From IMG/VR virus record IMGVR_UViG_3300031760_000155: a stretch of DNA of 43,146 nucleotides; one strand, written 5' to 3'. Positions 4,745 to 26,092 of the stretch are shown piece by piece. The notes under the pieces were generated by a model. That model was not told the origin of the DNA and made no database searches. It worked only from the letters and a program-made list of their open reading frames with translations. A program made the position numbers and the translations under genes. The stretch's first letter is position 1. Every line of letters begins with the position of its first letter. This DNA comes from a virus.

Positions 4745-4917
4745 CAGCCCTGCCTCCTTGCCGTTTCCATCCTGTCTGCCAGCTTCATTGCCTCACTTAC
4801 CCTTATGTAGTTTATTTTCCGCAGGGCATCCTCCAGCCTTATGCCCTGTTGCACCTGGCTTTTTATGAAGTCTGCAATCTTTTCGTCTCTGCTCTTTTTG
4901 CGCTCGTTTCCGTTCAT
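4744..4917 (-). CDS. Hypothetical 57-aa protein coupled to terL
   Basis: The ATG at 4915-4917 overlaps the terL TGA at 4914-4916 (ATGA). The longer track version 4744-4977 would lie inside terL. Confidence 0.5.
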   Translation of the reverse strand: MNGNERKKSRDEKIADFIKSQVQQGIRLEDALRKINYIRVSEAMKLADRMETARRQG

Positions 4918-6905
4918 GAATTGCCCTCCCTGTAGAATGCCTGGGTGGCCTTTGCGTAAGTCCAAAAGGCCTGCCATTCAAGCGACTTAAAGCCCAGGTC
5001 ATTCCGGCAAATGTCATCCGCAAAAATCTCCAAAGCGGCCTTGTTGTAAACGCGCGTATCGAACGCGTGGTTGTCCGCGCCGAATTTCTGCCGCCAGACC
5101 GTCTTTTGATAGCGTCCGTTCCTGTCCACAAGCTCGACCTTTTCTTCTGCCTCGTACATCTTGAAATAGTCGTCGCCAAAATCTTCCGGAAAATTCGGGT
5201 ACCAATTCGGCTGCGCCTGCCCGTCATTCCAGAAGAGGCGGTTCATTTCATTTGCTATTCTGTCCTTAATCAAACCTGTGTTGACGTGGTAGGCAAGCGG
5301 AAGCCCTATCTGCTGCAAAGTGCCCTTTGAGAATAGCTGCCATGTTGCGCCGTCCTTAATCCAGTCCTGTCCCTTGCAGGCGTAAACACCCGCCGCAAAC
5401 TGCTGCACAAAGGCATAGACCCATCCAGTGTAGTGGCCGCTGTCCACAAGCGTTATCATGGGGCGGTACTTGCGCCCGTCTTCATCGGTGTAATCGGTTT
5501 GTATCAACTCTGAAAGCTTTGTCCAGGGCCCGCCAAACTGCTCCACGTCCCCCTCAATCCATTTGAAGTCAATGGAAAAATTGCAGCCCCTGTCAGTATA
5601 GCCAACAAGGTCAAAATAAAGGCCGTTTTTCTGAACGTCAACGGATGCAACAAGAATTAAAATTGGTGAGCCTGTGTCACGCACGGCAAGGCGGTTGGGA
5701 ACATGCCCACGCGCAAAGCCCAGCCGCCTGTAGCGCAGGGCCCGCTCATAGCGTACCGTCTCATGCTGTTCACGGAAGGGCAGCCCCTGCTTAAGGTTGC
5801 GGAACACCCTGTATTTTTCTATGTCCTTAATTCTGTTTGTCTTTATGTCCCAGACCGTAGCCCATTCCGCTACATAATCCTCCCAGCTAAACATTCCGGG
5901 CGGATTATACAATGCGGTGATGTGGTAACTTTCAGCCCCTGGCCTTTCCGGCTGTGCCACGCTTGCCCGCCACTCACCTTTGGAAATAATTTCTGCCTTG
6001 TCATAGTTCCGCATGACCTTTCCGCAATGCGGGCATTTGTAGCCGACTGTATCAAGACGCGGCCGGAAGTTTTCATCATTTTCCCAAACGATGCCACCCA
6101 CCTGTTTGCCCTTGTCGTGCTCGTCCCAGATTGCCCATTCAAGCTTCTGCATGGTCCCGCAAAATTTGCAGGGCACATAAAAATATTTTTGCGTTCCAGT
6201 CAAAAAAAGAGAATGAATCAAAGAGCTGCCTTCATTCTTTGGCGTTGAACCTATGACAAGTTTTGAATGCGAGCCAAAGGCATCCTGCCTTGCCTTCATC
6301 AAAGTAAAAATATCGCCCTCACCCTTTAGCGTCATAAGGGCTGCATCCGCTTCATCTGCAAAAATGACCTTGAAGGAAAAGTTTCTGAACCGCGTTCCGC
6401 TTTTGCTTCCAAAAAGACGAAGGTTCCCACCCGGGTACTGCTTATGAAAGACCGTGTCTCCCGTGGTCCTTGCGCCTTTTGCTTTTTTTGACGTGCTTGT
6501 AATTCTTTCACGAAGCCCGCAATTGTCGATGCAGTTTTCAAGCTTCGTTTCTGAATAGCGTCTAACCATGCCGTCATCGGGAAGGAACAAAGCCTGCTCT
6601 TCCGGGTCGCTGCCAATGAAGTACATCATGCCAGGCTCAAGCACTCCTGTCGTGTACCCGCATTGATTGCCCTTCATCACAAAAATATATTTAGCCGGGC
6701 TTTCCGGGGAAAGGTTGTCCACAATTTCCTTGAAGTACGGGAATTTGTCATAGGTGAATTTTCCGGGGAATGGAGACAGCGAGCGGTCTATGTAGCGGAC
6801 GCGCTGAATGTATTCACTGGGCCGCTCATATTCACGCCGCTCCGGCAGACGCGCAAAGCGTTCAATGAGAAAGTCTATGTCCGATTTTTTTACAGCCACT
6901 TCCAT
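4914..6905 (-). CDS. terL: Terminase large subunit, lambda GpA family
   Basis: 663 aa. GpA-like layout: N-terminal ATPase region (VMKGNQCGYTTG, FADEAD) and a C-terminal nuclease part. Confidence 0.9.
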   Translation of the reverse strand: MEVAVKKSDIDFLIERFARLPERREYERPSEYIQRVRYIDRSLSPFPGKFTYDKFPYFKEIVDNLSPESPAKYIFVMKGNQCGYTTGVLEPGMMYFIGSDPEEQALFLPDDGMVRRYSETKLENCIDNCGLRERITSTSKKAKGARTTGDTVFHKQYPGGNLRLFGSKSGTRFRNFSFKVIFADEADAALMTLKGEGDIFTLMKARQDAFGSHSKLVIGSTPKNEGSSLIHSLFLTGTQKYFYVPCKFCGTMQKLEWAIWDEHDKGKQVGGIVWENDENFRPRLDTVGYKCPHCGKVMRNYDKAEIISKGEWRASVAQPERPGAESYHITALYNPPGMFSWEDYVAEWATVWDIKTNRIKDIEKYRVFRNLKQGLPFREQHETVRYERALRYRRLGFARGHVPNRLAVRDTGSPILILVASVDVQKNGLYFDLVGYTDRGCNFSIDFKWIEGDVEQFGGPWTKLSELIQTDYTDEDGRKYRPMITLVDSGHYTGWVYAFVQQFAAGVYACKGQDWIKDGATWQLFSKGTLQQIGLPLAYHVNTGLIKDRIANEMNRLFWNDGQAQPNWYPNFPEDFGDDYFKMYEAEEKVELVDRNGRYQKTVWRQKFGADNHAFDTRVYNKAALEIFADDICRNDLGFKSLEWQAFWTYAKATQAFYREGNS

Positions 6906-6920: not shown

Positions 6921-6936
6921 CTTCTAACGTTAGAAG
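6921..6936. promoter_or_regulatory. Perfect 16-bp palindrome CTTCTAACGTTAGAAG (copy 2 of 4)
   Basis: Overlaps the MTase stop codon, 15 nt upstream of the terL ATG. Confidence 0.8.
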
Positions 6937-8165
6937 CCGCAGACCTCCTCCCAGCCAAAGAGCTCACCCGGCACGGAAAATTTTTCCGCCTGGTGCCGTG
7001 GCATGAAAACTTTTTCGCAAACCTTCAAGGCCGCCCCAGAACACAAAGTTGCACGGTGTGTAATTTTTTTTACGCAGCAGAATTTTTTTTCCGGCATTTC
7101 ATAGCTTGAAATAAAAACAGGCTCGGTCTGCTTTTCGCACCAGGCATAGAATTTTTCATAATCAAAGTCCATGCCATAGCCGTCCGTGTCTTTGTAGGGA
7201 ATGTCACAGTAGAGAATTGAATTTTTTAAAATGGGAATTTCATCATAGGACTTGGAGCAGACCTCCAGCCTTTGCAACCTTTGCAACCTTTGCAACCTTT
7301 GCAACCTTTGCAACCTTTGCAACCTTTGCAACCTTTGCAACCTTTCCAAACTTTCCAAACTTTGCAAACTTTGCACTGTCTCCAGAAGGAGGGCTACCCC
7401 GGACACCTCATCATAGTCAAGTGGTAAATCAATAATTTCTTGTAATTTCTGGTAATTTTCCTTTGTCGGAAATTCCCACTGGCTCTTGCTAAAGTAATGG
7501 CCTGCCATGCCGTTCGTTCCAAGATGGCGGTCAACGTCTGCCGCCGTCCTGCCGGATTTTTTCAGGCCGTCCACAAGGTACTGCCTAAGCTCCTCGCTTG
7601 TTTTTTTTATCTTTTCTTCAAGATTCTTTCTAAGCTCTTCTGTGTCAAGCTTTGTCTTTTCAATTTTTTTCAAATACCATTCAACGTAAAGCTTTTTGTA
7701 CTGCTCTTTATTTTCGCGGATGTCTTTTCTTGTTCCGTCAGTCCTTATTCCAAATTCGTTGAACAAGTCAAAGTTCCCAAACACACGCGCAAAATGCAAA
7801 GCCTTTTTCCAAGGTTCAACTTCCTTGCTGTAAAGATAGTCCTCGCCGTTGTTGCCAAAGCTCCAGACGTAGCGCACATAAGGCTCGCTGTCTTTTAGCC
7901 TGTAAAAATCACCGCGGGAGATCCACCTCCTTTCATTCTCAAACTTGCCCTCTATGGCATCGCGGAAAAGCTGGACCGGCCCCGCGTTAATGTCATTGGC
8001 TATGATGCGCTTGTAATTTTTGTGGGCAATGGCAAAGTGTGTCATTGCGCAGCCACCGGCAAAGAGGTCGTAGAAGTTTTCTGCCGTAGGAAAAATTTCA
8101 AAAATCTTTGCGGCAAGCTTTGACTTGCTTCCCTTGTATGGCAGGCCATATCTGTCGAAGTCCAT
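6930..8165 (-). CDS. Orphan DNA N6-adenine methyltransferase (Dam / D12 class) with an internal (LQR)n repeat
   Basis: YKGSKSKLA and FAGGCAM (SAM-binding region) at the N-terminus; CDIPY (DPPY-type catalytic motif) near the C-terminus. Inserted between terS and terL. Confidence 0.85.
   Translation of the reverse strand: MDFDRYGLPYKGSKSKLAAKIFEIFPTAENFYDLFAGGCAMTHFAIAHKNYKRIIANDINAGPVQLFRDAIEGKFENERRWISRGDFYRLKDSEPYVRYVWSFGNNGEDYLYSKEVEPWKKALHFARVFGNFDLFNEFGIRTDGTRKDIRENKEQYKKLYVEWYLKKIEKTKLDTEELRKNLEEKIKKTSEELRQYLVDGLKKSGRTAADVDRHLGTNGMAGHYFSKSQWEFPTKENYQKLQEIIDLPLDYDEVSGVALLLETVQSLQSLESLERLQRLQRLQRLQRLQRLQRLQRLQRLEVCSKSYDEIPILKNSILYCDIPYKDTDGYGMDFDYEKFYAWCEKQTEPVFISSYEMPEKKFCCVKKITHRATLCSGAALKVCEKVFMPRHQAEKFSVPGELFGWEEVCGF
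7269..7376. repeat. Tandem 9-bp repeat, 8 perfect CCTTTGCAA units plus 4 degenerate units, in-frame inside the Dam-like gene
   Basis: Counted directly. Encodes LQS LQS LES LER (LQR)x8 on the minus strand. Confidence 0.95.
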
Positions 8166-9495: not shown

Positions 9496-10626
9496 TTAAT
9501 CAAATAAATTTTCTACGGCGGTTTTGGTATCTTTGATTCCGGCAAGACCGTCTTCTATGGAGGCGCGGGTGTAATATTCCGTCATTTTCTCCGCCGCATG
9601 CCCCACAAGCTTGCGAACAGTATCAACAGGCAGGGTACGGCGCATCTTGGTCACGTAGGTGTAGCGCAACGAATGGGGGGTGAGTTTCCGACCGTCAAGG
9701 TCTATGCCAGCTTTTTCCAGAGCCTTTCTAAAAATCGTTTCAAGATACTCTTTGCGCATGGGCTTATTTTCATGTGTGAAAATGAATTGCTCCGCGTCAA
9801 TGCCCCTTTTTTGAATGTAATTTTCAACTAAACCGCACACGCGCTCAGGCAATAAAACGATGCGGAACTTGCGGTTTGATTCGTTGCCGGATTTGTTAAA
9901 GTCTGTCCGCACGTTGTCCCCGCGCATAAAACCGTCAATAACAAGGGCTTTGTCCGCAAGCAAAAACTGCTTAGGCCGTAACGCGCGAGCCTCACCCAGC
10001 CGCAACCCCGCAAAGGCAGACACAAGAAAAAGTAAATAAACCGTTTCCGCATCCACCGCAAAGCCCTGGAAGTTTTCAGGCACAAAAAGCCGCTTTAGTT
10101 CGCTGGAGCTGAATATGTCGGTCTTGCCCTGGGCACGAGTAAACGTAGGAAATATAGGCAAAGTCACCTTAAGCCCTTGCCATGCTGCCTCGTCGTAAAT
10201 CTCATAGAATACGGTGATGTAGTGCTTTTTCCAGCTGCCGGAACGGTCAACGCCAAGAAGGTAGTTGCCCACATCGCTAACTTTAATGTCGCGGATGTCG
10301 TAACTGCCCCATTTTTCAATGATTTTTTCTAAGTAGGTACGGCTTTCCTTTAGTGTTGATTCAAGCACCCCGCGCCCAAAGGCAGCACGGCGCTTGACGT
10401 GGTTAGAGCCTGGAAGGAACATGTCCCTTGCTATCTCGCGGATTGTGGCAACTTCCCTGTTGATTGGTGGCAATGCGCAAACAAAGGCCCATGCCTCGGC
10501 CTTGTTTTGACAGCCTTTGCAGACCTTTTGAATCTGCTTGCCGTCTTTGTAAAACCAATAGTACCAACGCTTTACGGTCTTTTTGCCCTTGCCAACCGTT
10601 TTTTTTTGGAAGATGTTATAGTCCAT
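9496..10626 (-). CDS. int: Tyrosine integrase with N-terminal arm-binding-type domain
   Basis: Catalytic signature AGLRLGEARAL, HSLRYTY, GHAAEKMTEYY (R, H-x-x-R, Y). N-terminus KRWYYWFYKDGKQ resembles arm-type DNA-binding domains. Confidence 0.9.
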   Translation of the reverse strand: MDYNIFQKKTVGKGKKTVKRWYYWFYKDGKQIQKVCKGCQNKAEAWAFVCALPPINREVATIREIARDMFLPGSNHVKRRAAFGRGVLESTLKESRTYLEKIIEKWGSYDIRDIKVSDVGNYLLGVDRSGSWKKHYITVFYEIYDEAAWQGLKVTLPIFPTFTRAQGKTDIFSSSELKRLFVPENFQGFAVDAETVYLLFLVSAFAGLRLGEARALRPKQFLLADKALVIDGFMRGDNVRTDFNKSGNESNRKFRIVLLPERVCGLVENYIQKRGIDAEQFIFTHENKPMRKEYLETIFRKALEKAGIDLDGRKLTPHSLRYTYVTKMRRTLPVDTVRKLVGHAAEKMTEYYTRASIEDGLAGIKDTKTAVENLFD

Positions 10627-15795: not shown

Positions 15796-16052
15796 TGGCA
15801 AAAGGTGACTGGCAGTACATGGCAAGCGAAACGCTCAAACAGACCATCGCATTCGACAAGAAAAGCGGCTGGCTCTTTTGCCAGGACGGGACGCGCTACA
15901 GTCCGCAGGAACTGGCAAAGATAACCAAAAACTGGACACAGGCAATCGACTTCCCGCTGCAAGTCCACCTTCTAAAAAAAGAATTTGGCGGCGAAATTGA
16001 ATTTGTGGGAGAAAAAGCTCCTGTTTCAGAAACGGGGCAAATTAGAAAATGA
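15795..16052 (+). CDS. Hypothetical 85-aa protein
   Basis: Coupled ORF (TAATG) between parB and the primase gene. Confidence 0.55.
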   Translation: MAKGDWQYMASETLKQTIAFDKKSGWLFCQDGTRYSPQELAKITKNWTQAIDFPLQVHLLKKEFGGEIEFVGEKAPVSETGQIRK

Positions 16053-19000
16053 AAAAAGAACTACCATTCGAAAAATACAAGACACACCTCTTTGACTATT
16101 TGCGCCTGCACGGAATTAACGCTGAATCCGGGCAAATGATCTGTTGTCCCTGGCACGATGACCCCACACCTTCCCTTTCCTTTTTCACAGACAGCGACGG
16201 CTTCCCCCGATTCAAATGCTTTGGTTGCGGAAAGCAGGGAGACATCTACAGTGCCGTGGAATTCTGCGAGGGCATCACCGACGCTAAAAAACAGTTTGAA
16301 GAAATAGAAAACATTTTCGGAACTGGCGGGGACATTTCAAAGCAGTTTGTCCCGCCGCCAAAAAAAGAAAAGTACCAGTTTGTCCCGGACAGGGAAAAGC
16401 TGGCAAAAATTCAAAAGTGGCTCGACGGCCTTGAACACAAAAAAGAAAACATCCTGTCTTATTTCCGCACCCGCGCGGAATACAAGACCGCAGGGGAGCA
16501 GTCAAGCTACCCTCTCAACCCCTACGAGCTTGACCGCCTGGCATCCTTTTTCTTCTGGTGGCCGGGCGCATCACAGGCCGTGGCAGAGTTTGGCAACACG
16601 TTCCTTTTTTCTGCCGGAGTTCCCTATAAAAAAAGCAAGAACGGCTCGCGCATTGTGGAAGAATTTCAAAATGCAGAGGACTTCCCAAAAGAAGGTGCTG
16701 CCGGAAAGATTTATCTTGAACAAAAAACCGACACCTGTTTTTTCTGGAATGAAACAAGCAAAAGCTATGAAAAGGCAAAGGAAGACCCCCGCGAGCTTGC
16801 CTGGTGGCATTCCGGCATTCTTGCAAAGTCCCCGGACGGCATGAAGCTTCTTTATATGAATGAAAAGGACTTTGAAAGCATGAAGGTAAACCCGCGCACG
16901 GGAGTGTCCTTCTTCCCCATTCCGGGAGAGCTTCCAACGGAAAAGCCTGTTGTCCTTATGGAGGGCGAAATAGATGCAATCCTTTGCCAGTCCATCGGCA
17001 TAGGGAACGCTTTTTCCATGGGTGGTCTGGGAAACCTTTCTGTCCCAAAAATTAAAAAGTTTTTGATGCCAAAAAAAATCCCGGAAATAATTCTTTTTGC
17101 TGACAATGACAAAGCCCCTAAGTGCCAGAGCCAAAAGGCTTTCGGCATGATGCCTTATGCAGAAGGCGATGCTGTTGTACAGACAATCCCGGAAAAGCTT
17201 TTGGAAGCGGGCTTTGAAGGAAAAATAAAGGTAACTTCCCTCCCGCCCGAATGTCCATACAAAGACCCGGACGATGCCATCCGCAACGGAAAGCGGCAGC
17301 TTGTCTTTGATGCCATAGCCAATGCCTTGGATTATGTCGCACCAAAAAAGCCGGAAAAGAAGACGGCAAAAAAGGAAGCAGAAAAAAGCCAGCCAAAAAA
17401 AATCCGGGGTACTGTTTACCAGGAATGGGACACAATCCCATTAAAATTTTACAAATCCCTTTTGAAAAAATTCAAATGGTCCAACCTCCAGGAAGAAGAC
17501 AAGAAGCCCTTTGTGTGCGCCGCATACAAGGCCTGCAAAGAAGACGGCGCACTGGATGCGCTCATAAGCTTTACCAACAATGACTTTGACAAGGAAGCAA
17601 TAGAAAAAGCCTCGGAGCTTTCCGCAACTCCCTTCTACCTCTTGGAACTTGGCGAAAAGTATGAGCTTTCAAAGTTCATAATTGACAAGCTGGAAGAGCA
17701 TCTTGTTCCGGCAAAAGAAATCCTGCGCATTTTTAAAATCGAAGAGACTGTTGTCCCTGTTGACTACGAGGCAATGGCAGAAAATGAAAATTTGATCGCT
17801 TTTATAGAAAAGAAGGACAACTTCTTTGCCGCTTGCGTTATAGCCGATGCAACGGACGGCAATATTATTTATGTTGAAAAGGAGAAAGCTCATTATGCGT
17901 TCCGAGGCGTTGCTTGGGAGCGTCTGCCAGGCCTTGCCGTGGAAGCACACAAAATTCTTCAAAACATTCTTTTAACTTACTTGGAAAAAAATCTGTCCCA
18001 GAAGGACGTTATCAATAAAATTTTAAAGCAAATCGGAAGCCGCCGGTTCCGACTTGACCTTGTTAAAGACTTCAATGAATTCCGCGGTGAGACCTACCGC
18101 GAAGAGGTCATGTTCGACAGTGTACCTATACAGGCTACGCTCACCATGCAGGACGGTGTTGTTGATTTTTCTGGAGACAAGCTCATTTACCGTAAGGCAA
18201 CGCGCGAAGAGTACCGCCGTGCAGTCCTTCCCTACACCATCGGGCAAATTAAAAAAGCCGGAAAGCCAGAGCAGTTCTTGAAGCTCCTGGAAGGAGACTT
18301 TGAAAAGCCCAGCGTGGAAACGTTGCAAAGAAACTCCGTAACAACTGTAAAAACTTTGCTTTACTATCTGTCATTAGTCCAGAGCAGAAACACCCAGTAT
18401 AAATACGGCGGCTTTTTCCTTGGTCATGGTGGTACTGGAAAATCTACACTTTGTTCAATAATAGATGCTATCTACCCGGACAATTGCACGCAGCTCCAGA
18501 ACGAAATTTTAATTTCTGTGGGAAAACGCTTCCAAAGTTCAAACGGCCCTACACCGGAAATTGCAAAACTGGAAGGTAAACTTATAGCATTTGTCCAGGA
18601 GACCCCTAAAGATGGACGGCTCAACACTAATACGTTCAAACTGTTGACAGGCGGCGATAAACTTTCCGCCCGCTTCCTTAACCGCGACCCGCACGAATTT
18701 TTCCCCACGGCACAAATCCTTGTAAGCTCAAACAATTCCCCGGACTTTGAACACGGAGATGATGCCGCAATTAAAAGAATGATAATTTTCCGCTTCAACA
18801 TTGAGCATGAAAAAGGATTAAAGGAAAGCAAAACTCCCAAAGAATTTATCGAAGAATTGCGCCCGGAATTTCCTGCCATAATCAAGATGCTCGCGGAGCA
18901 CTACATAGAACTGCATACAGTGTTCAAGGGTAAAATCCCCATGAGCACGGAATGTGTAAACGAAAAAAACCTCTATGTCCAGGAACAGGAAAAGGACACT

Positions 19001-19465
19001 GACCGTTTCGTAAAGCTTTGCATCCGCTACGCCTTCACCGACAACGATGCATTCATAACTAGCCGTGACCTTTATTTGATTTACCTTAATTTACTTGGCA
19101 TCCAGGAAGGCTCCAAGGAAGCTGCAACACAAAGGCAATTCACTACATGGTTAAAGGCAGACTACAAGGAGTTCCGCCGTTCATACAAGCAAAAACGTCT
19201 GGACGGCAGCGCAAACCCTGAATGGGGCTTTGAGCACATTGCCCTGACTGACTACGGCAAGGAACTTCTAAAGCAAACCCCGCCCGAACCAAGTGACCAG
19301 CTGGGCTTTGACCAGTCCGCAACACCGCCGGACGATGACCCCTTTGCCAATGCAAGCTTTGCCCCACCACCCAAAAAGAAGGCAGCAAAGAAAAAGCCGG
19401 AAGCATCATTAAAGATGCCGGAGCCAGAAGAAGACACTGGCAACGATGACTTTGACATTTACTAG
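16049..19465 (+). CDS. Primase-helicase fusion (CHC2 zinc finger, TOPRIM, D5/P4-type SF3 helicase)
   Basis: CCPWHDDPTPSLSFF...FKCFGCG (CHC2); MEGEIDAIL and FADNDKA (TOPRIM); GHGGTGKST Walker A with downstream LIAFVQE (Walker B-like); Lys/Pro-rich acidic C-terminal tail. Confidence 0.85.
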   Translation: MKKELPFEKYKTHLFDYLRLHGINAESGQMICCPWHDDPTPSLSFFTDSDGFPRFKCFGCGKQGDIYSAVEFCEGITDAKKQFEEIENIFGTGGDISKQFVPPPKKEKYQFVPDREKLAKIQKWLDGLEHKKENILSYFRTRAEYKTAGEQSSYPLNPYELDRLASFFFWWPGASQAVAEFGNTFLFSAGVPYKKSKNGSRIVEEFQNAEDFPKEGAAGKIYLEQKTDTCFFWNETSKSYEKAKEDPRELAWWHSGILAKSPDGMKLLYMNEKDFESMKVNPRTGVSFFPIPGELPTEKPVVLMEGEIDAILCQSIGIGNAFSMGGLGNLSVPKIKKFLMPKKIPEIILFADNDKAPKCQSQKAFGMMPYAEGDAVVQTIPEKLLEAGFEGKIKVTSLPPECPYKDPDDAIRNGKRQLVFDAIANALDYVAPKKPEKKTAKKEAEKSQPKKIRGTVYQEWDTIPLKFYKSLLKKFKWSNLQEEDKKPFVCAAYKACKEDGALDALISFTNNDFDKEAIEKASELSATPFYLLELGEKYELSKFIIDKLEEHLVPAKEILRIFKIEETVVPVDYEAMAENENLIAFIEKKDNFFAACVIADATDGNIIYVEKEKAHYAFRGVAWERLPGLAVEAHKILQNILLTYLEKNLSQKDVINKILKQIGSRRFRLDLVKDFNEFRGETYREEVMFDSVPIQATLTMQDGVVDFSGDKLIYRKATREEYRRAVLPYTIGQIKKAGKPEQFLKLLEGDFEKPSVETLQRNSVTTVKTLLYYLSLVQSRNTQYKYGGFFLGHGGTGKSTLCSIIDAIYPDNCTQLQNEILISVGKRFQSSNGPTPEIAKLEGKLIAFVQETPKDGRLNTNTFKLLTGGDKLSARFLNRDPHEFFPTAQILVSSNNSPDFEHGDDAAIKRMIIFRFNIEHEKGLKESKTPKEFIEELRPEFPAIIKMLAEHYIELHTVFKGKIPMSTECVNEKNLYVQEQEKDTDRFVKLCIRYAFTDNDAFITSRDLYLIYLNLLGIQEGSKEAATQRQFTTWLKADYKEFRRSYKQKRLDGSANPEWGFEHIALTDYGKELLKQTPPEPSDQLGFDQSATPPDDDPFANASFAPPPKKKAAKKKPEASLKMPEPEEDTGNDDFDIY

Positions 19466-20234: not shown

Positions 20235-20249
20235 AAAGGAGGTTGAATA

Positions 20250-21014
20250 ATGAAAATTGATGGCAAAGTGCATTGTCTTTTTGAGCAATCGGGTACCTTC
20301 AAAAATGAATTTAAGAAGCTGGGGATTCTGGCGGAGGATTATGACATCCAGAATAATTTCGGAGAAACAGACCACGTAATTGATTTGTTCAATGAAATAA
20401 AAGTGGCATACAGGCAACAGGCAACAGGCAACAGGCAACAGGCAACTATATTCGATTCAATCAATCCATGTCAAGACCTGGTTGTTGCTTTTTTCCCTTG
20501 CATATATTTCGAGACGATACAACAGCTTTATTTTTGTCTGGCAAAAAATGAATTGCAGAAAAAACCAAAAACTTGGCAGATAGACTATGCCATCAAAAGA
20601 CTGGAGAAAAGAACTATGTTGCACAAATTGCTTTATAAATTAGCGTGGCTTTCTTATAAGATGAATTTTCGCATGATAATTGAAAACCCTGCGGCATCAC
20701 CTAATTATTTGATAACTGGTCAAAACTTCCCCACTCCTACGATTATTGATAAGAACAGAATGTTAAGGGGAGATGTTTTTAAGAAGCCGACCGCGTATTG
20801 GTTTTTTAATTGCGAACCGACCCGCGGATTTACTTTGCAAAATGATAAGAAACAAAAAATAATTCAAGACTGTCATAGGTCGAACGGCGATGGTTTGTGT
20901 TCAGAAGAAAAAAGCATGATAACCCCAGACTATGCAAGAAATTTTATTTGCGATTTCATTTTGGGTAAAGTCCAACATAATATAGGCGAACCCCAATTTG
21001 ATTTTGGTAATTAA
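20250..21014 (+). CDS. Orphan DNA methyltransferase, C5-cytosine-MTase-like motifs, carrying a heptanucleotide repeat
   Basis: VHCLFEQSGTF (motif I-like), DLVVAFFPCIYFE (PC motif IV-like), IIENPAAS (ENV motif VI-like). AAGGAGG SD upstream. The family assignment is tentative. Confidence 0.6.
   Translation: MKIDGKVHCLFEQSGTFKNEFKKLGILAEDYDIQNNFGETDHVIDLFNEIKVAYRQQATGNRQQATIFDSINPCQDLVVAFFPCIYFETIQQLYFCLAKNELQKKPKTWQIDYAIKRLEKRTMLHKLLYKLAWLSYKMNFRMIIENPAASPNYLITGQNFPTPTIIDKNRMLRGDVFKKPTAYWFFNCEPTRGFTLQNDKKQKIIQDCHRSNGDGLCSEEKSMITPDYARNFICDFILGKVQHNIGEPQFDFGN
20411..20445. repeat. Perfect tandem heptanucleotide repeat (CAGGCAA)x5 inside the MTase ORF
   Basis: Counted base by base. Translated as RQQATGNRQQAT. 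The unit length is not a multiple of 3. Confidence 0.95.
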
Positions 21015-22936: not shown

Positions 22937-23234
22937 AAAAAAAGAAGAGTGTCATGGCAAGGACATAATTGTCCTTACCATATACGCCCTTGAAGACGGC
23001 AGCTTCACATTCTCACTCCAGTGTGCCGTAGCCGGAATAATCCGCGCCGCCTACCCGCACCAGTTGCCGGACAAATACGCATCCCCCGCAAGCGCAAAAA
23101 CCGCCGCCCTTGCCCTACTTAAGAACTGGACCGCTCAAAGCCGCACCGCCAAAGCCCGCCTAAAAGAATTCGGCATCACTTTCTGCGACACCCAGCTGGA
23201 ATTTAACTTTGACATCCAAGAAGAAAACGGATAA
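22923..23234 (+). CDS. Hypothetical 103-aa protein, last plus-strand early gene
   Basis: Track ORF. Its 3' end converges on and overlaps the RT gene end by 32 nt. Confidence 0.5.
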   Translation: MILAEKKEECHGKDIIVLTIYALEDGSFTFSLQCAVAGIIRAAYPHQLPDKYASPASAKTAALALLKNWTAQSRTAKARLKEFGITFCDTQLEFNFDIQEENG

Positions 23235-24174
23235 CCTTTAAAAGTTGCCGAACATAAAACATGTAGTTGTCTGTATGCACTGCATGTCCGCACATACTCG
23301 CAATACTTTTACAAAATTTTTCTGCTTTAACTTCTCCTTTTAGAAATTTATTCACAAACCTTCTTGTTTTATAAATAGTTTGCTTTTTTATCATTTTACC
23401 TTTTGGGTAAATTTTATAACCTACAAATTCAACGCCTTTTGCAATTTTTCCTATTGTAGTCTTTTTATTTAATTTTAGAAAAAGTTTTGTATTCAAAAAA
23501 TATTCTATTAAATGCAAAACTCGTTTTAACTCGGATTTATTTCCAAGCAAAATAAAATCGTCCATATAACGCACATAAAATTTTATTTTCAAATTTTGTT
23601 TTACAAATTTATCAAGCTCATTTAAATATAAATTTGCCGTAAGCTGACTTAATCTATTCCCGATTTTTATACCTTTTTCTGGATTATCTTTATGTAAAAT
23701 CTGAAATATTAAATTTAAAGTCCTTATGTCTGATATATGTCTTTTATAAAGTTCAAAAGCTATATCAAGATCTACATTATAAAAATATTTTTCAATATCG
23801 CATTTTAAATAATATTCTGTTTTGTTTTTGCCTATAAAATAACTAAGTCTATTGGCAGCTTTTAATGCACCTTTTTCTTTTAAACAGGCATAACTATCAT
23901 AAATAAAAGTTTTAATTATTTCTGGTTCTATCACATTACAAAGGGCACTTTGGACAACTCTATCACGATAAGGCAATGCATTTATTTCACGTCTTTTTGG
24001 TTCGTATTTTATAAATGTATAAAAATCGCCTAATTTGTATAAATTCCATAATAATTCATTTTGTAATTGTATTAAATTTTCTTCTAAATGATTATAAAAT
24101 TTTAATGATGCAGCTTTATAAGCTGCAAGTAAATTGTCAAAACTGCAAATTTTTTCAAAAATATTTTCCATCAT
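23203..24174 (-). CDS. DGR reverse transcriptase
   Basis: IGNRLSQLTANLYLNELD (DGR-typical SQ motif) and YMDDFILLG (YxDD catalytic box). About 320 aa. Adjacent to TR and avd. Confidence 0.9.
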   Translation of the reverse strand: MMENIFEKICSFDNLLAAYKAASLKFYNHLEENLIQLQNELLWNLYKLGDFYTFIKYEPKRREINALPYRDRVVQSALCNVIEPEIIKTFIYDSYACLKEKGALKAANRLSYFIGKNKTEYYLKCDIEKYFYNVDLDIAFELYKRHISDIRTLNLIFQILHKDNPEKGIKIGNRLSQLTANLYLNELDKFVKQNLKIKFYVRYMDDFILLGNKSELKRVLHLIEYFLNTKLFLKLNKKTTIGKIAKGVEFVGYKIYPKGKMIKKQTIYKTRRFVNKFLKGEVKAEKFCKSIASMCGHAVHTDNYMFYVRQLLKVIRFLLGCQS

Positions 24175-24336: not shown

Positions 24337-24470
24337 GAATCACAGGCAAGCCGGGAGCCAATGTTGCATTCACATTCCAAGGAGAATTGTTCCCATTGAC
24401 CGTGCGCGGGCCATAGTGAACCCCTTCATTCCAGTTGCCACCGCAAATGAAAGCGCGCAAACCTTCGCTG
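24337..24470 (-). repeat. DGR template repeat (TR), 134 nt
   Basis: Near-identical to 24894-25028. Abuts the avd stop codon (24473-24475). Confidence 0.9.
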
Positions 24471-24472
24471 CA

Positions 24473-24847
24473 TTAGCCGCCTTGTTTTATTAAGCCGCCC
24501 AAAATACGCCCTAATTCTGCCATCATTTTTTCAGCTGTCTCATAGCTTTTTAATGACAAATATTTTGAACCTTTGGAATAAGCAAAGCGAATGTAAAAGC
24601 GTAAAATCTCAAACTCTGTATCAATTTTGTACCAACCTTCGTTTTTTCTGGCGCTTCGATTAGTTCTTATTATTAACTCTATAATGCGATGTAAACAGTT
24701 TTTTATATCTGTCTCAAGTGCAAAGTGTTCATAATGCGGGAACTTTTCAATCCTTGGTTCAAAATAAATTATAAAATCTTCAAATTTTCTAAACAAGATT
24801 AAATTTTGAACATTTCCTGCTCGAAAATTTATGTTTGCTGTTTTCAT
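24473..24847 (-). CDS. avd: Accessory variability determinant (Avd, four-helix-bundle protein)
   Basis: 124 aa, basic helical protein (KFPHYEHFALETDIKNCLHRIIELIIRTN...) located between the target gene and TR, as in BPP-1-type DGRs. Confidence 0.8.
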   Translation of the reverse strand: MKTANINFRAGNVQNLILFRKFEDFIIYFEPRIEKFPHYEHFALETDIKNCLHRIIELIIRTNRSARKNEGWYKIDTEFEILRFYIRFAYSKGSKYLSLKSYETAEKMMAELGRILGGLIKQGG

Positions 24848-24880: not shown

Positions 24881-24898
24881 GATTCGCTAACGCGAATC
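24881..24898 (-). promoter_or_regulatory. VR-flanking hairpin (7-bp stem, 4-nt loop) overlapping the target stop codon
   Basis: GATTCGC-TAAC-GCGAATC on the plus strand. Absent at the equivalent TR end, where the sequence runs into a T run. Confidence 0.7.
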
Positions 24899-26092
24899 AC
24901 AGGCAAGCCGGGAGCCAACGTTCGCATCCACACGCCAAGGAGAATAGTTCCCAGTGACCGCGCGCGGGCCATAGTGAACCCCTTCATTGCAGCGCCCACC
25001 GCAAATGAAAGCGCGCAAACCCTCGCTGTTAGGTAAATATGCCTGTCCTTGTTCTGCGCCCAAAACATTTTGCCAGCCCCAAGATATACTTCCAAAATCT
25101 AAAAAATTATCTTTTGTCCATTCGTAAATATTTCCAACGCAGTCAACAATATTTTTTGCAGATATTGCGTATGGCTTTACTCCAGACACATTGTCGAAGG
25201 CTCCAGTCGAGGTATTAACTTGGCACCCTGTGAATGTTTTCGCTGTATTTGTAGTCTTTGCCCATGCATAATTATTGGCTCCGTTTTCGGCCTGTGGGCT
25301 GCCAAAAGCAGAAGCCAGCCATTCTGTATATGAGAGCAACCGCAATCCCTGTCGCTCTGCAAGTTCATTGAAATTATACATATTCAAGCCCTCTGTTCCT
25401 GTCAATGGCAAGCAACCATATTTTGACTGTAGTTTTCCTTCCGCAACGGATAAACCGTTTGTCCCGCTCATAAATGTAACCGTTTCTAAAGCTGACGGTT
25501 GATAAATGAAACACCACAAATTCTTATTAACCTGCGCCATTCCACCAAACAAAGTCTTAGGCCTGTTCTTCAAATCCCACACCGAATTCGGCACGATGCC
25601 AGTAGTTACATTATCCTGCCACTTGGTGCCGGAAGAGCCCCATTTTGTACCTGTAGAATCAACAGGCACCCAAAGCCCATCCTCGCTAACTTTGCGGATG
25701 TGCCCCACGTGGAAGCCGCCAATCTTTCGCGAATTGTCCGCCGTAAATCCATCCGGGTAGGTTGTATTCAAAGACACAACGATGGCCGGGTCTTCGTTGC
25801 CGTCAATAACAAGATAAACAAAGTAATCGTTCCCGATGGCAAGTGTGTCCCCAGTGTCAAGGTTTGCCACCGGATCAAACTCAATGTCCCCGCGGTTAAT
25901 GAACTGCCGCCAGGTGTTGCCGTCGTAAAGGTCAATACCAGTGCCGTCCTTTAAAATCAATTTGTTTTCATCGTAAAGGAACGGGTCTTTCTTCTGTAAA
26001 AACGAATCGCCGACACATTTGAAATTTCCGCTTTCCGGGATGCACGCAACGGTGCAATCGTCAACTAAATCTTTATATATAAGCAAACTCAT
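24887..26092 (-). CDS. DGR target protein: tail-fibre/receptor-binding protein with C-terminal FGE-type C-type-lectin fold
   Basis: C-terminal SYTEWLASAFG...NIYEWTKDN...RAFICGGRCNEG...SPWR is typical of FGE/SUMF1-like DGR variable proteins. Last gene of the fibre module. Confidence 0.85.
   Translation of the reverse strand: MSLLIYKDLVDDCTVACIPESGNFKCVGDSFLQKKDPFLYDENKLILKDGTGIDLYDGNTWRQFINRGDIEFDPVANLDTGDTLAIGNDYFVYLVIDGNEDPAIVVSLNTTYPDGFTADNSRKIGGFHVGHIRKVSEDGLWVPVDSTGTKWGSSGTKWQDNVTTGIVPNSVWDLKNRPKTLFGGMAQVNKNLWCFIYQPSALETVTFMSGTNGLSVAEGKLQSKYGCLPLTGTEGLNMYNFNELAERQGLRLLSYTEWLASAFGSPQAENGANNYAWAKTTNTAKTFTGCQVNTSTGAFDNVSGVKPYAISAKNIVDCVGNIYEWTKDNFLDFGSISWGWQNVLGAEQGQAYLPNSEGLRAFICGGRCNEGVHYGPRAVTGNYSPWRVDANVGSRLACDSR
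24894..25028 (-). repeat. DGR variable repeat (VR), 135 nt, at the 3' end of the target ORF
   Basis: Aligned by hand to TR. There are 10-11 differences at TR adenines (coding sense), 2 at non-adenines and a 1-nt indel. Confidence 0.9.

Follow-up and report, generated by a model that had tools for sequence, protein, structure and literature searches.

Simple sequence repeat (SSR) contingency loci change by slipped-strand mispairing during replication, and these changes are reversible. In the phasevarions of bacteria, SSRs switch the mod genes of restriction-modification (R-M) systems of Type III, as exemplified by H. influenzae modA and M. catarrhalis modM (PMC4525171, PMC6902483). In the coliphage T2, the A9 tract of the agt gene toggles DNA glucosylation, allowing the phage to escape TgvAB when OFF and McrA/BC when ON (Gomez, Barrick & Waters, bioRxiv 10.1101/2025.10.21.683753). 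According to a preprint that cites Liu et al. (2004, J Bacteriol 186:1503), a poly-G tract in a methylase gene of the Bordetella phage BPP-1 was noted but not taken further. Hypermutable poly-G tracts are also reported for the receptor-binding proteins of Campylobacter Fletchervirus (Sorensen et al. 2021). A 2026 review of methyltransferase-based epigenetics in prokaryotes covers phage-encoded and phase-variable enzymes separately, and lists none that is both. Here we describe a heptanucleotide tract, (CAGGCAA)5, within a methyltransferase-like gene of the IMG/VR virus record IMGVR_UViG_3300031760_000155, of which the whole 43,146-nt stretch was analysed (hereafter, the window). We consider it very likely that (CAGGCAA)n is a contingency (phase-variation) locus in a small, orphan C5-methyltransferase-like gene of a temperate phage, which bears a diversity-generating retroelement (DGR) and is probably a phage of Bacteroidales.

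Reading frame and unit number of the heptanucleotide tract

By direct reading of the sequence, the tract is composed of five perfect units, and Tandem Repeats Finder delimits it at 20405–20446 (period 7, 5.9 copies, score 75). It is the sole perfect multi-base repeat in the window with at least four copies and a unit length that is not a multiple of three (non-3n); apart from it, the window has one long array, a 9-nt repeat at 7269–7375. By hand arithmetic, the chance of 28 matched bases in a row is about 4^-28 × 43 kb, or about 6e-13. The tract lies inside an open reading frame (ORF) of 254 amino acids, flanked by LFEQSGTF (aa 10–17) and FFPCIYFE (aa 81–88). An earlier reading, made from the sequence only, had placed five perfect units between a motif I-like and a motif IV-like region, and this matches the sequence exactly.

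The ORF was re-translated in silico with one to nine heptamer units. Full-length proteins of 247, 254 and 261 aa were obtained at 2, 5 and 8 units, respectively, and these 3n+2 values are the only in-frame unit numbers. When one unit is lost, translation stops after 108 aa, 46 codons beyond the tract, and when one is gained it stops after 102 aa, 35 codons beyond the tract, at the very distances that the sequence-only reading had derived by hand. As it had also proposed, the Pro-Cys motif falls out of frame in both cases, and no OFF product extends as far as the catalytic Cys. For the 3- and 6-unit frame, a sister haplotype has its stop downstream of that of the window background, leading to products of 110 and 117 aa.

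The 90% identity cluster of the window protein contains 43 members, and the DNA fetched for its members gave 28 alleles from independent ENA/Logan metagenome assemblies. Between conserved flanks, their tracts comprise whole units only, numbering 2, 3, 4, 5, 6, 7 or 8. All but two of the alleles are 93–96% identical in nucleotide sequence to the window gene outside the tract, the more divergent pair being one allele of 2 units (L104) and one of 8 units (L103). One haplotype, identical across the other 730 nt, was found with 3, 6 and 7 units, and a version of it that differs at 1 nt has 5 units. A second haplotype of the gene occurs with 4 and with 7 units. Because identical haplotypes differ in unit number, the tract changes far faster than point substitution. 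Many members of the cluster are C-terminal fragments that start at Met123, Met138 or Met142, on contigs of 24–43 kb, the outcome expected of a gene caller for a gene whose 5′ part is out of frame. The exact right-flank pattern had no matches in the JGI metagenomes and IMG/VR; the close relatives are in the ENA/Logan assemblies, and were reached via the protein clusters.

The products were counted by exact protein look-up in the public protein collection. Among the members listed, the 254-aa ON product (5 units) was present on about 12 contigs, and the OFF products were those of 110 aa (3 units, 13 contigs), 108 aa (4 units, about 14 contigs), 115 aa (7 units, about 8 contigs) and 117 or 102 aa (6 units, about 8 contigs).

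All 21 of the 21 complete OFF alleles encode exactly 254 aa once the tract is reset to five units, revealing that the repeat number is their only lesion. Furthermore, the ratio of non-synonymous to synonymous substitution rates (dN/dS) 3′ of the tract, calculated in the ON frame between the window and the haplotypes sampled in the OFF state only, is 0.05–0.09, which equals that of ON-versus-ON comparisons. The full-length protein is therefore kept by selection, and the OFF states are transient on the evolutionary scale. The phase-variable switch suggested from the sequence alone is thus borne out by the 2–8 units among related alleles, the identical haplotypes that differ in units, the otherwise intact OFF alleles and the purifying selection. 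The length polymorphism on which that suggestion hinged exists at the contig level across independent assemblies.

A near-consensus sigma-70-type promoter (TTGACA, 18-nt spacer, TATAGT; 11/12 matches) adjoins the right end of the tract on the minus strand, at 20474 to 20445, and would be directed antisense through the tract. It was considered as an alternative role of the tract and rejected, since both hexamers lie on one side and their spacing does not depend on the repeat. We judged it to be coincidental, as it overlaps conserved codons (TIFDSINPCQD) and the host probably uses another promoter type; to our knowledge, the sigma-70 TTGACA/TATAGT-type consensus is not used by Bacteroidales. Targeting of the tract by the DGR was likewise rejected, as the DGR repeats are unrelated to it.

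Slippery sites across the gene family

The family of the window protein is very large. A word-indexed search with a threshold of E ≤ 1e-3 yielded over 8000 clusters at 90% identity, and a full hidden Markov model (HMM) scan gave 890 clusters at 50% identity, with a typical length of about 242 aa. We sampled homologues by protein similarity, not by repeat, from 80 loci of IMG/VR, 80 of metagenomes and 40 of GTDB genomes, and obtained 161 distinct near-full-length genes. An SSR occupies the same site in 77 of them (48%), at gene nt 140–215, between the EIxxAY helix and the FDSI segment. The 78 SSRs at this site comprise 49 homopolymers (nearly all G8–G11), 4 dinucleotide arrays (AG, 6–11 copies), 21 pentanucleotide arrays (GACAA/ACAAG/AGACA, AACAG and GAACA, 3–13 copies) and 4 heptanucleotide arrays (among them ACAAGAC x5, and GAACGCA x3.4 and x12.4). 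In no case is the unit length a multiple of three. In eleven genes the reading frame breaks precisely at this SSR; examples include those bearing GACAA x5.8 (L047), G8 (L058), G10 (L096) and G7–G10 (L226–L230). In 652 kb of flanking DNA from the same loci (L017–L096 and L121–L240), we counted 28 G/C homopolymers (8 nt or longer) and 10 multi-base SSRs with a non-3n unit, corresponding to an approximately 100-fold enrichment at the site by hand arithmetic. The flanking genomes are otherwise AT-leaning, and some of the 28 G/C homopolymers may mark further phase-variable genes.

Back-translation alone points to further units at the site: the peptide period TRHKTQD in other homologues corresponds to the ACAAGAC unit, and the unit in P0078, whose peptide period is 8 residues, would be 8 nt long. 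The position tolerates linkers of about 3 to about 20 residues among the homologues. The recurrence of independent frame-shifting repeats at one tolerant loop, as judged from these sequence comparisons, would be hard to explain except by selection for switchability.

In an exact search of IMG/VR with three CAGGCAA units, 15 of the 16 loci were in unrelated contexts, and the only homologue, L013, bears CAGGCAA x4 and is in frame owing to a different left flank. Two of the unrelated contigs, L006 and L014 (both 9250, minus strand), have common flanks, with 9 and 8 CAGGCAA units followed by a CAGGCTGA-type repeat, and a third, L002, has 16 units. These three heptamer loci may be other phage contingency loci.

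Other slippery sites lie further downstream in the gene. A poly-C tract (C8–C12) is located at gene nt 455 in L039, L040, L052, L078 and L216, and L233 bears (TG)x8.5 at gene nt 369 with an adjoining frame break. A third site is a poly-G tract at about gene nt 600. In cultured B. fragilis phages, this tract (nt ~603) is G5 and in frame in vB_BfrS_23 and UZM3, and it is G8 in BF766P1 and G10 in BF10P3, BF8P1 and BF10P1, where the gene is frameshifted and the coding sequences are annotated as truncated (BF766P1 and BF10P3 are our loci L097 and L098). Given its location, these frameshifts were rejected as events at the linker site. The nt ~603 poly-G may represent a second contingency site, in isolates that can be tested in the laboratory.

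Identity of the enzyme and rival readings of the tract

The gene belongs to phrog_757 of PHROGs, annotated as 'DNA methyltransferase' (E 2.9e-16), and the RefSeq record of B40-8 and the UZM3 phage record label the family in the same way. Among 93 diverse homologues, E12, F81, P83, F87 and N146 are invariant, while C84, E145, P147, R170 and G174-D175 are at least 90% conserved. The F-P-C ... E-N-P ... R pattern follows the order of motifs IV, VI and VIII of the C5 methyltransferases. At the position of motif I, at the end of strand 1 in the model, the conserved F11-E12-Q13-S14-G15 is non-canonical as compared to FxGxG, and motif VI is ENP instead of ENV. An AlphaFold2 model based on the alignment of 93 sequences, which replaced a 38-sequence model of pLDDT 67.7, is confident (pLDDT 93.9, pTM 0.90). 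The top 50 Foldseek matches in the PDB are all catalytic domains of C5 DNA methyltransferases (DNMT3A/B/C and MET1), with E values of 1e-5 to 3e-4 and probabilities of 0.99–1.0. The segment corresponding to the target-recognition domain is very short (aa 187–225). We therefore describe the protein as C5-DNA-methyltransferase-like and consider it likely to methylate DNA; it is not a demonstrated member of PF00145.

Several results weigh against the phase-variable methyltransferase reading, and the first group concerns the enzyme. Sequence and profile searches with the window protein against Pfam, NCBIfam and the PDB (with profiles of 38 and 93 sequences) were empty, and PF00145 was matched by none of the 93 diverse relatives. 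An hhalign comparison with E. coli Dcm was not significant (7% probability), even though it pairs FFPCIYFE with GFPCQPFS, and the Foldseek TM-scores are modest (0.27–0.46). Thus, the identification made by the sequence-only reading stands as to the fold, the PC/ENP motifs and PHROG 757, and fails as to any Pfam, NCBIfam or PDB sequence match; likewise, of the two routes envisaged for confirming the family, HMM searches were negative and structure prediction was positive. These failures, together with the FEQSGTF and ENP forms of motifs I and VI and the very short target-recognition segment, favor the idea that the switch is real while the protein is a Rossmann-fold enzyme of another kind that uses a catalytic Cys, such as one whose substrate is RNA or nucleotides or one that makes a different DNA modification, so that the toggled product would not be 5-methylcytosine. 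We regard this as unlikely, because every one of the 50 best structural matches is a C5 catalytic domain, the invariant F81, P83 and N146 and the nearly invariant C84, E145, P147 and R170 stand in the order of motifs IV, VI and VIII, the PHROG, B40-8 and UZM3 labels agree, and the gene neighbours the primase within the replication module. A non-C5 identity would alter what is switched, but not the switch itself.

The second group concerns the tract. The OFF and ON alleles occur at about 3:1 in the window lineage, where neutral drift among the three frames expects 2:1, and since the ratio is near this neutral value, the gene is clearly dispensable in many settings. Moreover, one OFF allele of 3 units, the last of them degenerate (CAGGCAA CAGGCAA CAGGTAA), is present on 13 contigs from different samples, including L105–L110, L244 and L245; it may be semi-locked, or partly locked, in the OFF state, and spreading well without the enzyme. 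In addition, the contigs are population consensuses, and from such sequences the within-clone switching, its rate and its reversibility are inferred by way of homoplasy between samples. The OFF majority and the spread of the degenerate allele, as well as the frame-broken state of many homologues in bacterial metagenome-assembled genomes, would fit a neutral mutational hotspot in a decaying, dispensable gene, whose OFF alleles are pseudogenes. This explanation is very unlikely, however: a decaying gene would not be expected to leave complete OFF alleles without any lesion beyond the unit number, nor to retain the low ON-frame dN/dS of haplotypes sampled in the OFF state only, nor to acquire independent repeats of 1, 2, 5 and 7 nt, none of them 3n, at the same site in 48% of the homologues.

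It is highly improbable that selection acts on the length of the in-frame surface linker, with 2, 5 and 8 units tuning activity or specificity and the out-of-frame alleles arising as deleterious by-products. All three in-frame lengths do exist in nature (in L104, the window and L103, respectively), and the homologues accept a wide range of linkers, as described above. Nevertheless, a 3n unit would vary the length without lethal frames, yet 0/78 SSRs are of this kind; the OFF alleles are common and persist across samples; and the poly-G of many members adds at most one Gly per in-frame step. It is scarcely credible that errors of assembly or sequencing produced the variation in unit number, for although all comparative data are short-read metagenome assemblies and the poly-G of other members is error-prone, the tract (14–56 nt) is below the typical read length and the k=141 used for many contigs (from the contig names), all 28 tracts are exact multiples of 7, the same counts turn up in different samples and with different assemblers, and the comparable poly-G variation of cultured B. 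fragilis phages (G5, G8 and G10) is accompanied by neighbouring substitutions.

Phage setting, proposed switching and described systems

The window approximates the whole genome of a temperate, contractile-tailed phage, whose features are collected below. The methyltransferase-like gene also has a DUF7694 protein upstream and small ORFs downstream, and no res, hsd or other restriction genes were found among its neighbours, in keeping with the orphan status that the sequence-only reading had assigned to it.

Table. Positions in the window of the tract, the methyltransferase-like gene and other phage features
Feature	Position	Strand	Basis or remark
Heptanucleotide tract (CAGGCAA)x5, putative hypermutable switch	20411–20445	+	ON frame encodes QQATGNRQQAT
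Predicted orphan C5-cytosine-DNA-methyltransferase-like gene, 254 aa, ON here	20250–21014	+	ORF, PHROG 757, AlphaFold2, Foldseek, conserved residues
AAGGAGG, Shine-Dalgarno-like, 7 nt 5′ of the ATG	20236–20242	+	Sequence reading; putative function
FFPCIYFE codons, motif IV-like, catalytic Cys84	20490–20513	+	Out of frame in all OFF alleles
TAG stop for 1, 4 and 7 units (61-, 108- and 115-aa products)	20581–20583	+	Re-translation; 108- and 115-aa products called on many public contigs
TGA stop for 3, 6 and 9 units in the window background (95-, 102- and 109-aa products)	20549–20551	+	Re-translation; 102-aa products in the public collection
Internal Met123 codon, gene-caller start of the 132-aa C-terminal fragment on out-of-frame contigs	20616–20618	+	Public contigs
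Primase-helicase, upstream of the methyltransferase-like gene	16049–19465		
Large terminase	4914–6905		
Second methyltransferase, D12-class N6-adenine (Dam-like)	6930–8165	−	ORF; PF02086, E 4e-13
Tyrosine integrase	9496–10626	−	
DGR reverse transcriptase	23203–24174	−	
DGR Avd	24473–24847	−	
DGR target, Mtd-like tail protein	24887–26092	−	C-terminal FGE-sulfatase/CLec-type domain
Anti-repressor; ParA/ParB-like proteins; portal protein, head protease, major head protein; tail sheath, tape measure, baseplate	In the window		

The template repeat of the DGR (24366–24470) and its variable repeat (24924–25028) are 90% identical over 105 nt, with 11 differences, 9 of which are at template adenines. 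The relatives L101 and L105 have the same DGR arrangement as the window.

The second methyltransferase of the phage contains the in-frame 9-nt tandem repeat (coding strand TTGCAAAGG; 11.9 copies, 8 perfect), and thus both methyltransferases of the window phage carry tandem repeats. The 9-nt repeat encodes LQS/LES/LER followed by (LQR)n, between the S-adenosylmethionine-binding N-terminus and the DIPY catalytic motif. It keeps the frame, and its length variation could alter a linker or a coiled coil. A search of IMG/VR with three units of this repeat and an exact look-up of the protein gave no matches.

Homologues of the methyltransferase-like protein with 50–55% aa identity are encoded by cultured phages of Bacteroides fragilis and B. 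uniformis. The contigs of the homologues are binned mostly to Bacteroidales, namely Alistipes, Bacteroides, Prevotella and the isolate Duncaniella muris DSM 103720, and many are from the guts of ruminants or other herbivores. The host of the window phage is probably a member of Bacteroidales, a tentative assignment as bins can misassign phage contigs.

We propose that whole 7-nt units are gained or lost through slipped-strand mispairing as the phage or prophage replicates, the outcome being the variation observed. With 2, 5 or 8 units, a full-length enzyme would be made, in which the linker varies in length after the helix of residues 46–59 and upstream of the Pro-Cys strand. With other unit numbers, translation would end 35–46 codons further on, before Cys84, yielding a fragment of 95–117 aa with the motif I region only. 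Such OFF fragments are presumably inactive, and a re-initiated C-terminal piece would lack the motif I region. The comparison between alleles suggests that the ON/OFF switching is heritable and reversible, at a rate far above that of point mutation. Phage progeny or lysogens would then differ in the methyl mark of the enzyme on their DNA, and stochastic ON/OFF methylation of phage or lysogen DNA, as envisaged by the sequence-only reading, is a reasonable inference.

As to the benefit, we tentatively suggest, by analogy with T2 agt, bet-hedging between hosts in which the methyl mark blocks restriction and hosts with methylation-dependent (Type IV) systems that attack the mark; alternatively, the OFF state might avoid a cost of methylation in the lysogen. 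Across the family, the same solution would seem to have arisen many times, with different repeat units at one permissive site. Whether the case is general is, in our estimate, evenly balanced: a very large family of small C5-methyltransferase-like genes, in phages and prophages of gut and rumen Bacteroidales, may have evolved frame-shifting SSRs independently and more than once at a single permissive loop, with poly-C or poly-G at two further sites. Stochastic ON/OFF self-methylation would then be a general bet-hedging strategy favoured by selection in these phages, perhaps more widespread in gut viromes than any other phage contingency locus, and in lysogens it could act as a prophage-borne phasevarion.

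The family offers a concrete and abundant system for asking whether phages hedge between methylation-blocked and methylation-dependent restriction, and opens the question of whether prophage methyltransferases create epigenetic heterogeneity in Bacteroidales. There are practical consequences as well: gene callers fragment these genes, as in the records of cultured B. fragilis phages and many metagenome proteins, and phage methylomes may vary within a single stock.

As compared to the PF00145 class, which includes DNMT3A/B/C, MET1 and the Dcm/M.HhaI enzymes, the window protein shares the predicted fold and the F-P-C motif followed by E-N-x and Arg in the canonical order. It differs in the lack of a significant profile match, in its much smaller size, in its minimal target-recognition segment and in its non-canonical motifs I and VI.

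Like the bacterial phasevarions, the locus consists of an intragenic non-3n repeat in a DNA methyltransferase ORF, which sets the frame ON or OFF and is polymorphic in near-identical alleles. However, the phasevarion genes encode N6-adenine Mod subunits with a cognate res on bacterial chromosomes, and bear mostly tetra- or pentanucleotide repeats near the 5′ end, whereas the window gene is a 254-aa, C5-like orphan that lacks a restriction partner; it lies in the replication module of a phage, and its heptamer separates motif I from motif IV. Nor does the gene fit the phasevarion pattern, in which the methyltransferase is the Mod or HsdM part of an R-M locus of Type III or Type I: its neighbours are the primase-helicase, the DUF7694 protein and small ORFs.

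In function, the nearest counterpart of the proposed benefit is T2 agt, a phage DNA-modification gene that SSR slippage inactivates and reactivates, hedging between TgvAB, which attacks modified DNA, and McrA/BC, which attacks unmodified DNA. The T2 coliphage is virulent, its gene encodes a glucosyltransferase with an A homopolymer, and its switching has been measured experimentally. In contrast, the window phage is temperate and of a Bacteroidales-type lineage, its gene is methyltransferase-like with a 7-nt unit, and its evidence is comparative and family-wide, with convergent repeat types. With BPP-1, as described in the citing preprint, the window phage shares the temperate lifestyle, a DGR acting on an Mtd-type tail protein and a slippage-prone tract in a DNA methylase gene; the tract of the Bordetella phage is a homopolymer, and that of the window a heptamer. 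In Fletchervirus, phage-encoded SSRs are similarly reported to produce ON/OFF subpopulations as bet-hedging, but the repeats there are homopolymers only and the target is host recognition, not DNA modification.

Full-text literature searches turned up neither an account of this family nor one of SSR switching among the methyltransferases of Bacteroidales phages. While the principle is established, a switch built on a multi-base repeat within an orphan methyltransferase-like gene of a phage, with population evidence and convergent origins throughout the family, appears to be unreported. SSR-switched methyltransferases are a textbook device of bacteria, and phage contingency loci have been recognised only recently and only as homopolymers, in the receptor-binding proteins of Campylobacter phages and, in a 2025 preprint, in T2/T4. 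The locus described here is distinct from these in that its switch is a multi-base repeat in a phage orphan gene, that it flips faster than point mutation under purifying selection, and that such repeats are convergent in about half of the family.

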